This document shows positions 1 to 3,375 of a stretch of 3,375 nt of DNA, in pieces (position 1 is the first letter of the stretch; every line of letters begins with the position of its first letter). The stretch is from Escherichia coli (lineage in GTDB: Bacteria; Pseudomonadota; Gammaproteobacteria; Enterobacterales; Enterobacteriaceae), in assembly GCF_024298765.1 (NCBI RefSeq), contig NZ_CP101216.1; one strand, written 5' to 3'. Both the position numbers and the translations under genes were made by a program. The notes beneath the pieces were generated by a model. That model did no database searches. It saw only the letters and a list, made by a program, of their open reading frames with translations, and was not told the origin of the DNA.

Positions 1-210
1 TGACGCGCCCCGTGATCGATGGCCTTGGCTCCGTCCGGCATATCGAGAGCGGCAAACTACCCGTCCCTTCACTGGGAGGGGTGAGTTGTTGCCGTTCCCT
101 CCAACCTTTCACCATCCGGCATATCGCACGATCCCATGTGCACCGCAACTCCTGATAACTCCAGTGCAAAAAAAAAAAAAACGGATCTGCATCACAACGA
201 GAGTGATCCC
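1..210 (+). other. ColE1/pMB1-type replication origin, distal part (3' region of the RNA II primer and presumed RNA-to-DNA switch); RNA II promoter and RNA I lie outside the window
   Basis: Position matches the pMB1/pBR322 layout (ori, then bom, then rop). Window 211-226 ACCGCTCGCCGCAGCC and 259-272 GGAAGCGGAAGAG closely match the pBR322 segment between ori and bom as I recall it. The A14 run at 168-181 followed by CGG sits where pMB1 has its A5-CGCC switch motif. Positions 1-160 are too diverged to align by eye, so the boundaries are approximate. Confidence 0.45.
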
Positions 211-394
211 ACCGCTCGCCGCAGCCCCAGCGACCGAACGTAGTGAGCGAGTGGGCGAGGAAGCGGAAGAGTCACAGATGCAAGCATTGTGCACTTACGC
301 GCCTGTGCCAGTGTCCGCGTGTGTGCTGTTTATCGGGTGCGCTGTTTTTACATCTGTGCGGCTTTTTACTCCTGACATGGTGCACTTCCCATCC

Positions 395-560
395 ATGTCT
401 GCACCGATGCAAAATGAGATAAGCCAGTATACACATCGCTATCGCTCTGTGAACTGGGTCAGGGCTGCGCCCCGACACCCGCACTGACGCGCCCTGGCGG
501 GCTTGTCTGCTCCCGGCATCCGCTCACAGGCAAGCTGTGAACGTCTCCGGGAGCTGCATG
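395..560 (-). other. oriT / bom (basis of mobility) of the ColE1 family, with predicted nic site between 424 and 423 on the minus strand
   Basis: Reverse complement of 417-435 reads TGTGTATACTGGCTTATCT, matching the conserved ColE1/pBR322 nic region GTGTATACTGGCTTAAC. The flanks are near-identical to pBR322 bom as recalled: revcomp of 458-478 GGGTGTCGGGGCGCAGCC, of 500-526 GCGGATGCCGGGAGCAGACAAGCCCG, and of 543-561 ACATGCAGCTCCCGGAGAC. The nick position CTGG/CTTA is from memory of the ColE1 literature. Confidence 0.8.
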
Positions 561-562
561 TT

Positions 563-754
563 TCAGTTGCTTTCACCGTCATCGCCGAAGCGTGCGAGGC
601 AACTGCGGTAGAGTTCGTCGGCGTGGTCGTGAAGTGATTCGCAGATGTCTGCCTGTTCGTCCGCGTCCAGATCGTTGAGTTTTTCCAGCAGGGTTAGCGT
701 CTGGCTTCTGATAAAGCGAGCCATGTTAAGGGCTGTTTTTTCCTGTTTGGTCAT
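563..754 (-). CDS. rop: Rop/Rom, RNA I-RNA II interaction modulator (plasmid copy-number control), 63 aa
   Basis: Translation MTKQEKTALNMARFIRSQTLTLLEKLNDLDADEQADICESLHDHADELYRSCLARFGDDGESN is near-identical to ColE1/pBR322 Rop as I recall it (E to D at residue 27, last residues differ). ATG start with an AGGAG Shine-Dalgarno on the minus strand (revcomp of 763-767) about 8 nt upstream; TGA stop. Confidence 0.95.
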   Translation of the reverse strand: MTKQEKTALNMARFIRSQTLTLLEKLNDLDADEQADICESLHDHADELYRSCLARFGDDGESN

Positions 755-2833: not shown

Positions 2834-3375
2834 TCAGCCAGGGGAAAACATGGTTTTTTTACTTTTTGAGCGTAAAGACGTGAAAAATCTCGTTATTGCA
2901 CTTGCGATCTTTCGTCGGCGGGCGTAGAACGAAAACAGCTCGCCAGGAAGGCGAGCTGTTTCGGGTTCATTGAGGTCTCTGACCTCCTCAATGTTCCTGT
3001 GGAAACTGTTGAGATCCACAACAGAAACCAGTTCATTCAGTTTGCATGAGCCTTCTGTATTCTTCAAGAATTTTTCAACAGCACAGTCTCCCAGGAACCC
3101 CGAAAAAAACCTGTTTTTGCAGATACTTGCGTATTTGCGAGAATCGTTTGCGGTTGGGGGAGCTGTGACGACGGCGACCGCACGCGTGAGAGTTCCGCTA
3201 CCGGCGCAGAGAGTTTCATCGACAGCGGACACCTGATGAGTTGCCACAAAAACCGTATGTAGCGCGGCTAGATTGGTTGAGTTAGACCTTGGCGGCAGTT
3301 CCCGGTATGTGGTGGCGTGACGGGTGAGATGGTGCGGCGAAGACGCATACGTCACGCAGGCGCGGGTTCTTCCAC
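2834..3375 (-). CDS. Hypothetical protein, 5'-truncated by the window edge (frame stays open past 3375); no recognisable domain
   Basis: A stop-free minus-strand frame of at least 180 codons, ending at a TGA (revcomp of 2834-2836) and convergent on the mob operon. Against it: no ATG anywhere in the frame (the listed start at 3353-3355 is GTG with no SD), and the strong hairpin at 2933-2961 lies inside it. Composition of the central part (KYASICKNRFFSGFLGDCAVEKFLKNTEGSCKLNELVSVVDLNSFHRNIEEVRDL) looks protein-like. Confidence 0.3.
   Translation of the reverse strand, partial: GRTRACVTYASSPHHLTRHATTYRELPPRSNSTNLAALHTVFVATHQVSAVDETLCAGSGTLTRAVAVVTAPPTANDSRKYASICKNRFFSGFLGDCAVEKFLKNTEGSCKLNELVSVVDLNSFHRNIEEVRDLNEPETARLPGELFSFYARRRKIASAITRFFTSLRSKSKKTMFSPG
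2850..2927 (+). CDS. Candidate small peptide, 25 aa (MVFLLFERKDVKNLVIALAIFRRRA), hydrophobic with a basic C-terminus; function unknown
   Basis: ATG at 2850 preceded by AGGGGA (2840-2845); TAG stop at 2925-2927, followed 5 nt later by a perfect GC-rich hairpin. No homology recognised. It overlaps the 3' end of the convergent minus-strand ORF, so at most one of the two readings is likely to be real. Confidence 0.2.
   Translation: MVFLLFERKDVKNLVIALAIFRRRA
2933..2961. terminator. Perfect 12-bp stem-loop (AAACAGCTCGCC, loop AGGAA, GGCGAGCTGTTT); candidate rho-independent, possibly bidirectional, terminator
   Basis: Seen directly in sequence. On the minus strand the stem is followed by TTTTCGTTCT; on the plus strand by TCGGGTTCATT. 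Confidence 0.45.

Follow-up and report, generated by a model that had tools for sequence, protein, structure and literature searches.

The window, by which we mean the whole stretch of 3375 bp that was analysed, is a complete small circular plasmid of 3.37 kb, and it is mobilizable. The ORF list and Pfam identified Rop, a MobC/NikA-like protein, an MbeA-type relaxase, MbeB and MbeD, and the gene order is that of ColE1. The rop (rom) gene occupies 563..754 on the minus strand (Pfam Rop, full length, E = 2.5e-37), is annotated in the closest database record, NZ_CP123259.1, and is transcribed towards the origin; its product binds the kissing complex of RNA I and RNA II. Window positions ~212-760, which hold an n'-pas-like block, the bom/oriT region and rop, align well with ColE1. 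The bom/oriT homologue also contains a sigma-70 promoter-like site on the minus strand (TTCACA-16-TATACT, 10/12, at 426-453) that points at the origin.

The RNA I and RNA II 5' control region was located at 2932..3051 by folding, consensus helices and alignment with ColE1. Judging from that alignment, RNA II would start near 2930-2938, and its stem-loops were found at 2936-2958, 2962-2999, 3006-3024 and 3031-3051. An RNA I-like antisense RNA folds from the minus strand (~3045..2932) into three stem-loops followed by a terminator hairpin and UUUU, with a folding energy of -45.3 kcal/mol (z = -4.9, 0/200 shuffles). The helices of this region recur in the consensus fold with compensatory pairs, and the region aligns with ColE1 RNA I. 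Taken together, the gene order, the ColE1-alignable segment 212-760, Rop and the RNA I-like fold place the plasmid in the ColE1 superfamily, of which it is a discrete side-branch, and identify the plus strand as RNA II-sense. The initial annotation had proposed this strand assignment and had taken the start of the window as the origin-proximal end of a ColE1-type RNA II replicon. The former is borne out by the minus-strand position of rop and of the RNA I-like RNA, and the latter by the ColE1 alignment, Rop, the RNA I-like fold and the consensus fold of RNA II. A 173-aa ORF (2834-3355, minus strand) runs antisense to most of RNA II, and hypothetical proteins are annotated there in some records; it is probably spurious, since it overlaps a structured RNA gene.

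A search with the window gave 137 plasmid records at a coverage of at least 80% and identities up to 99.9%, and most of these were 3371-3375-bp plasmids of E. coli or Salmonella. NZ_CP123259.1 differs from it by two substitutions and by one A fewer in the homopolymer described below (A13), and pSL476_3 of S. Heidelberg SL476 is another close relative (A12). The replicon is fairly common, being carried by 178 of the 72,556 database plasmids (PLSDB) and by 100 of the 5,426 complete E. coli genomes, and an exact match to the window occurred in none of those 100 genomes. When the RNA II segment was used as the query, three divergent members of different clades each returned the same closed set of 178 plasmid records, and these three "distant" searches revealed no bridge to the canonical family. 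The set comprises sub-clades that are ~92-94% identical, with MOBQ backbones and without rop, and others that are ~72-78% identical, and it includes plasmids of 1146, 1177, 1541 and 1552 bp. Since Rop is missing from the relatives with MOBQ backbones, it is not essential to the replicon. No similarity between the RNA II of this lineage and that of ColE1 was detected by blastn. An Rfam scan of the window at E <= 1 gave no match, the RNAI family included, so that RNAI membership could not be used to recognize the replicon, and MOB-suite assigned it no replicon cluster or type. The lineage is a previously untyped one that lies in a blind spot of Rfam RNAI and of MOB-suite replicon typing. Our literature search found no paper that names pSL476_3 or maps an origin in this lineage.

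Some individual records stood out. The plasmids pF200-6 (L004, 1146 bp) and pZ1323HEC0422-10 (L115, 1177 bp) are near-minimal, with the RNA I/RNA II region, an A-run (A13 and A12, respectively) and a pas block, and show no convincing gene. NZ_CP080517.1 (L003, 3383 bp) differs from the window in two ways: its run is three A's shorter, and it has an 11-nt tandem duplication (GTCTCGAAAAA) after window position 1380. The duplication lies inside mbeA and shifts the relaxase reading frame, and MOB-suite typed the relaxase of this plasmid twice.

The 3' part of RNA II crosses the start of the window and contains two G-runs. RNA II is described as having two G-rich stretches, the downstream one lying over a C-rich template and nucleating the persistent hybrid (Masukata and Tomizawa 1990, as cited in PMC4412123, through which the reference to Itoh and Tomizawa 1980 was also taken). 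In the window, G-run 1 (3156-3160) belongs to the segment GCGGTTGGGGGAGCTGTGA at 3150..3168 on the plus strand and is kept in all clades. G-run 2 (GGGAGGGG, 74..81, plus strand) is likewise kept in all clades, reaches G7-G8 outside the clade of the window, and is the 3' strand of a hairpin with covarying pairs (58-67 with 74-83). It aligns collinearly with the G6 of ColE1 and is probably the counterpart of that G-run, which lies at -20. The spacing between the two G-runs is 294-305 nt, compared to 247 nt in ColE1. In the consensus fold of the whole RNA II, the G-run 1 segment is the 5' partner of two long-range helices, helix A (3156-3168 with 89-101) and helix B (3150-3154 with 142-146). Helix A formed 12/13, 12/13, 10/13 and 12/13 pairs in register in four clades, compared to 10 at most in slid registers, and showed two double-sided changes; helix B had 5/5 pairs in all clades. 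Because both helices are in register across the four clades, the RNA II fold takes in bases 3' of G-run 2.

G-run 2 is followed by a C/A-rich, G- and T-poor stretch at 82..167 on the plus strand, which shows no indels across clades and an identity of 0.61-0.93 with no drop. There was no conserved local RNA structure within 82-167 (alifold -1.9 kcal/mol). The A-run comes next, 86 nt after the end of G-run 2 in the window and 86-100 nt after it across the lineage. The junction between the run and the pas block (182..211, plus strand) has an identity of 0.59, with its first ~20 nt poorly conserved, and holds a GATC-armed inverted repeat (GGATC at 183-187, GATCC at 204-208). The clades of the window and of L005 align without indels over 82-167 and cannot be aligned over 182-205. 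At 212..271 on the plus strand is an n'-pas/ssiA-like block (CCGCTCGCCGCAG...GAGCGAGGAAGCGGAAGAG; also CCGCTCGCCGCAG...GAAGCGGAA) that aligns with ColE1 1310-1365, with high identity to the ColE1 block downstream of the origin and an identity of 0.9-1.0 among clades. The ssiA/n'-pas element is a primosome assembly site (PMC3167613), and this is the putative function of the block here. A genome-collection scan anchored on the pas block also found it in an unrelated Rep-type mini-plasmid backbone that has no A-run, and the block is therefore a portable module. The scan hits in question (L010-L025) are contigs of ~1.4-1.6 kb that carry the exact 29-nt block (window 212-240) and encode a 158-aa HTH_36 protein, probably a Rep. 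They are filed under implausible hosts (Flagellimonas, Micromonospora, Mycobacterium, Clostridium, Bradyrhizobium and others) and probably represent a stray enterobacterial plasmid or contamination in those assemblies.

The A-run consists of 14 consecutive A residues at 168-181 on the plus strand, with GC before and CGG after it, as had been read from the letters in the initial annotation, and it places T14 on the RNA II template strand. It is the sole run of at least eight A or T within the 3375-bp window. An A8 pattern had seven matches, all within the run, against 0.17 expected, and 0/200 dinucleotide-preserving shuffles reached seven. An A-run was present at the same place in 34/34 sequences, comprising 14 complete plasmid records and 20 independent metagenome assemblies and including clades down to ~72% identity. 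Its length was A10 in three, A11 in 12, A12 in 12, A13 in six and A14 in one, the window, so that the mode is 11-12 and 14 is the range maximum. Every plasmid relative fetched had GC followed by A11-A13 at this place, and the metagenome scan, whose anchors flanked the run on both sides without requiring it, recovered 20 genuine relatives, whose runs were all A10-A13. Where the backbone or the downstream pas variant (L115) is a different one, the run goes with the RNA II side, and it is kept in the 1146-bp and 1177-bp plasmids.

In four sets of replicons, 705 flanking bases (660 nt upstream of the run and 45 nt downstream of it) are identical and run length was the sole difference, with lengths of 11, 11, 13 and 14 as an example. 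Such sets mean that the tract slips or is miscalled, or both, the share of sequencing error being inseparable from that of slippage. Whichever applies, the A-tract is the most changeable site of the replicon, and the comparison of clades indicates that it is under selection to stay long. The initial annotation had called the run unusually long and prone to slippage. Its length indeed far exceeds the A4-5 of the seven canonical plasmids compared below, and its variation between otherwise identical replicons fits slippage. Two other roles for the run were considered and rejected. ORFs at 86..487 (plus strand) and 109..294 (minus strand) cross it, and they are not coding, because their frame would change with the run, which varies from 10 to 14 in identical replicons. 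A role as an antisense promoter or UP element was dropped since no convincing -35/-10 was found beside the run.

The textbook example of replication primed from an R-loop is the ColE1-type origin, on which most cloning vectors are based. To our knowledge, the switch motif of this origin type (G6, 12 nt, A5) is treated as universal. In the general mechanism, RNA II forms an R-loop, RNase H and Pol I act on it, and n'-pas and PriA follow (PMC3167613, PMC5703827). The core GGGGGG-CGGAGCCTATGG-A4/5 was invariant in 7/7 canonical plasmids from five replicon clusters (ColE1, pK, pPAB19, pC-CRECL421, pMUT1, Kp_P3 and Kp_P5), and the distance from the canonical switch to CCGCTCGCC was variable, at 65-111 nt. 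This core, with its G6, 12-nt spacer and A4-5, was missing from the window and from all clades of the lineage. The lineage resembles the canonical ColE1/pMB1/p15A origin, at which RNase H cuts in the A5 of GGGGGGCGGAGCCTATGGAAAAAC and Pol I extends, in several respects: it is an RNA II-type replicon with Rop, two G-runs and an antisense RNA of the RNA I kind, its conserved primer region finishes on the 3' side in an A-run with C/G behind it, and an n'-pas-like block lies downstream. It differs in that its A-run is 10-14 nt long instead of 4-5, lies 86-100 nt after the G-run instead of 12 nt, lacks the spacer CGGAGCCTATGG, and is ~30 nt from CCGCTCGCC instead of 65-111 nt.

The initial annotation had equated the run with the pMB1/ColE1 motif GGAAAAACGCC. 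A global MAFFT alignment put the ColE1 switch opposite window ~92-100, away from the run, and the A-run opposite the DnaA-box region of ColE1. Local alignment of 82-167 with the ColE1 post-origin and pre-origin segments was no better than with shuffled sequences (272/500 and 159/500, respectively), and an alignment at chance level cannot place the switch and neither confirms nor refutes the proposed equivalence. Positional homology of the A-run to the ColE1 A5 is thus established in neither direction by alignment, and the missing core and the G-run 86 nt upstream speak against it. The distance from G-run 2 to CCGCTCGCC is 130 nt, compared to 129 nt in ColE1, and this match is weak evidence because the canonical spacing covers a wide range.

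Other properties of the two families were also compared. In the canonical plasmids, identity fell from 0.85-1.0 ahead of the A5 switch to 0.18-0.36 directly behind it. In the lineage, values of 0.70-0.83 held from G-run 2 as far as the A-run, with a single dip in the ~20 nt after the run. The GC skew of 94-167 was -0.43 to -0.46 in three clades, compared to -0.10 to -0.43 in canonical post-switch DNA, and sliding skew profiles superimposed when window 90 was set to ColE1 +1. The T fraction of the stretch up to the run was 0.13-0.23, compared to 0.27-0.41 in the canonical plasmids. The stability of the RNA-DNA hybrid minus that of duplex DNA was estimated with nearest-neighbour parameters attributed to Sugimoto 1995 and SantaLucia 1998. 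In the canonical plasmids the difference reached -6 to -7 kcal/mol in a trough between -20 and -10 and was positive after the switch. The only trough in the lineage was at G-run 2, the only strongly hybrid-favouring element near the RNA II 3' end (-4 kcal/mol in the window, -8.8 in L005); the balance turned unfavourable at 90-100, and this comparison showed no hybrid-favouring trough beside the A-run. The segment 95-181 was hybrid-neutral (-1.1 to +1.3 kcal/mol per 20 steps), in contrast to canonical post-switch DNA (+1 to +4). Thus, 94-167 is G-poor but also T-poor, so that a hybrid is not disfavoured there, and the argument from composition that it is post-origin DNA is weakened. No A-run was found near 85-100 in any clade.

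The reading that we prefer is that the A-run takes the role of the canonical A5, at which RNase H cuts RNA II, as a functional analogue and not as a positional homologue, and we put its probability at roughly 0.45. RNA II, starting near 2930-2938, would be under the control of RNA I and Rop at its 5' end, and a persistent RNA-DNA hybrid would nucleate at G-run 2, aided by G-run 1. The hybrid would persist across the C/A-rich, U-poor 82-167, where it is predicted to be about as stable as duplex DNA. We infer that RNase H would then cut within the rA:dT tract and that DNA polymerase I would extend from a 3' A, so that the n'-pas block of the displaced strand would become accessible to PriA almost immediately. 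Since the primer could end at any A of the tract, length changes between 10 and 14 would be tolerated and the tract would be free to slip.

This functional analogy, the part of the proposed equivalence that is still plausible, draws on several observations. The run was found in all 34 relatives, those ~72-78% identical and the 1146- and 1177-bp plasmids included, and the 85-100 region collinear with ColE1 has no A-run, although A4-5 is invariant in 7/7 canonical plasmids. The drop in conservation directly after the run mirrors the one at the canonical switch, the covarying helices extend the RNA II fold to 89-101 and 142-146, and the A(n)-C-G context resembles the canonical AAAAACG. Since 95-181 is T-poor and hybrid-neutral, a hybrid nucleated at G-run 2 could reach the run. 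Several points count against the analogy. The canonical G6-N12-A5 core is missing, the G-run is 86 nt upstream, and there is no trough beside the run. Collinearity with ColE1 from both sides would put the switch near 92-100, and 94-167 is G-poor, as canonical post-switch DNA is. RNase H would also be expected to cut a 100-nt mixed-sequence hybrid before the run is reached. Lastly, substitutions between the closest clades, those of the window and of L008, accumulate from ~100 onward, although recombination could also produce this pattern.

The main rival reading puts the switch directly behind G-run 2 (~85-100), at the place collinear with ColE1, where it would work without an A-run; the A10-14 would be a separate element ~75-90 nt into the leading-strand region, just before the pas block. 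We regard this arrangement as possible but less likely than the preferred one. The run might then keep the displaced strand unstructured by the primosome site, or might be a remnant or variant of a DnaA box. The collinearity and the 130/129-nt spacing to CCGCTCGCC are what this arrangement predicts, except that the alignment of the stretch is at chance level and the wide canonical range makes the spacing match weak. The sole hybrid-favouring trough is at G-run 2 and gives way to unfavourable values at 90-100, as at canonical switches; G-run 2 sits within a hairpin, as does the -20 G-run of ColE1; and the G-poor 94-167, the superimposed skew profiles and the start of substitutions after ~100 in the closest clades all agree with it. 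The indel-free 82-167 is unlike canonical post-switch spacers, however, an A-run invariant in canonical origins is not found at 85-100, and the strong selection for at least 10 A's would be left without a defined function. With regard to the DnaA box, Seufert and Messer reportedly implicated, in 1987, the box of ColE1/pBR322 in an alternative route of DnaB loading. That box (TTATCCACA; TGTGGATAA in ColE1) lies between the origin and pas, and the run occupies the collinear position, which precedes CCGCTCGCC by a few tens of bases. At the run's 5' edge stands TTTTGCACT, one mismatch from the consensus TTWTNCACA (171..163, minus strand); L004 and L009/L118 have a perfect TTTTGCACA there. However, the 9-mer has 2-3 mismatches in the L008 and L005 clades, which keep the run, and a DnaA box needs no 10-14 A's; a DnaA box was therefore rejected as the identity of the run.

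On the minus strand, the tract could instead be the U10-14 of an intrinsic terminator after a small hairpin formed by the GATC-armed repeat, stopping transcription from rop and the oriT-region promoter before it meets the origin and RNA II head-on. Both rop (754..563) and the promoter-like site at 453..426 point at the run, relatives with other backbones also have a minus-strand ORF converging on it, and a long U-tract would tolerate length changes. A hairpin whose end lies 0-2 nt from the start of the U-run can be drawn in every clade; that of L004 is strong (-17.4 kcal/mol, z = -3.4), and that of the L005 clade arises from a different sequence (GAUCCUGUGGGGAUC). The resemblance to intrinsic terminators, a minus-strand hairpin then a long U-tract facing convergent transcription, is offset by a generally weak, chance-level hairpin, a U-tract longer than is typical, and the absence of the site from the calls of a terminator scan. 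Hairpins constrained to have their 3' arm directly next to the U-run had energies no better than those of shuffled sequences in any clade (best 46/300), and the hairpin of the window had a z of only -0.6. In addition, no minus-strand gene is evident in the 1146-bp and 1177-bp plasmids, which keep the run, and the canonical family manages without such a tract. We therefore think a terminator improbable. Still less credit is due to the view that the run is a sequencing or assembly artefact, which had been raised in the initial annotation, or a neutral slippage-prone relic without function. The count of 14 is unique to the window, and otherwise identical replicons report 11, 13 and 14, a pattern that long-read homopolymer miscalling can produce. 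Yet at least 10 A's were present in 34/34 sequences, from complete plasmids and from independent metagenome assemblies retrieved with anchors not requiring the run, and the run has survived a divergence of ~28% between clades, over which a homopolymer free of selection would be expected to decay. We reject an artefact for the run as such, whereas its length of 14 may have been over-called by 1-3 bases.

A bolder extension of the functional-analogue reading, which we consider a long shot, is that the switch moved ~85 nt downstream of an ancestral site close to the G-run, onto a poly(rA):poly(dT) that abuts the primosome site. Slippage between 10 and 14 would then act as a heritable, reversible dial of primer processing and copy number, that is, a contingency locus in an origin. 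Like contingency loci, which are slippage-prone homopolymers, the run differs in length (10-14 nt) among otherwise identical sequences; unlike them, it lies outside a coding region or promoter, and part of its variation may be sequencing error.

The lineage keeps the RNA I/RNA II/Rop logic and the primosome site without the canonical motif, and has a conserved, length-variable A10-14 instead. Should the switch lie in this tract, primer processing would be less fixed in position and sequence than the canonical model has it, and copy number could be modulated by an origin element that is prone to slippage. The homopolymer will also yield spurious length variants in assemblies.

A further observation concerns GATC sites. 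A GATC occurs within 0-2 nt after the run in every clade, despite the differing surrounding sequence, and six of the nine GATC sites of the plasmid fall within the ~690-bp replicon (14, 130, 184, 205, 2906 and 3013). One of them lies inside the -35-like element of RNA II (TTGCGATCT), as is also the case in ColE1 (TTGAGATCC). Such a cluster could subject the origin to Dam/SeqA control.
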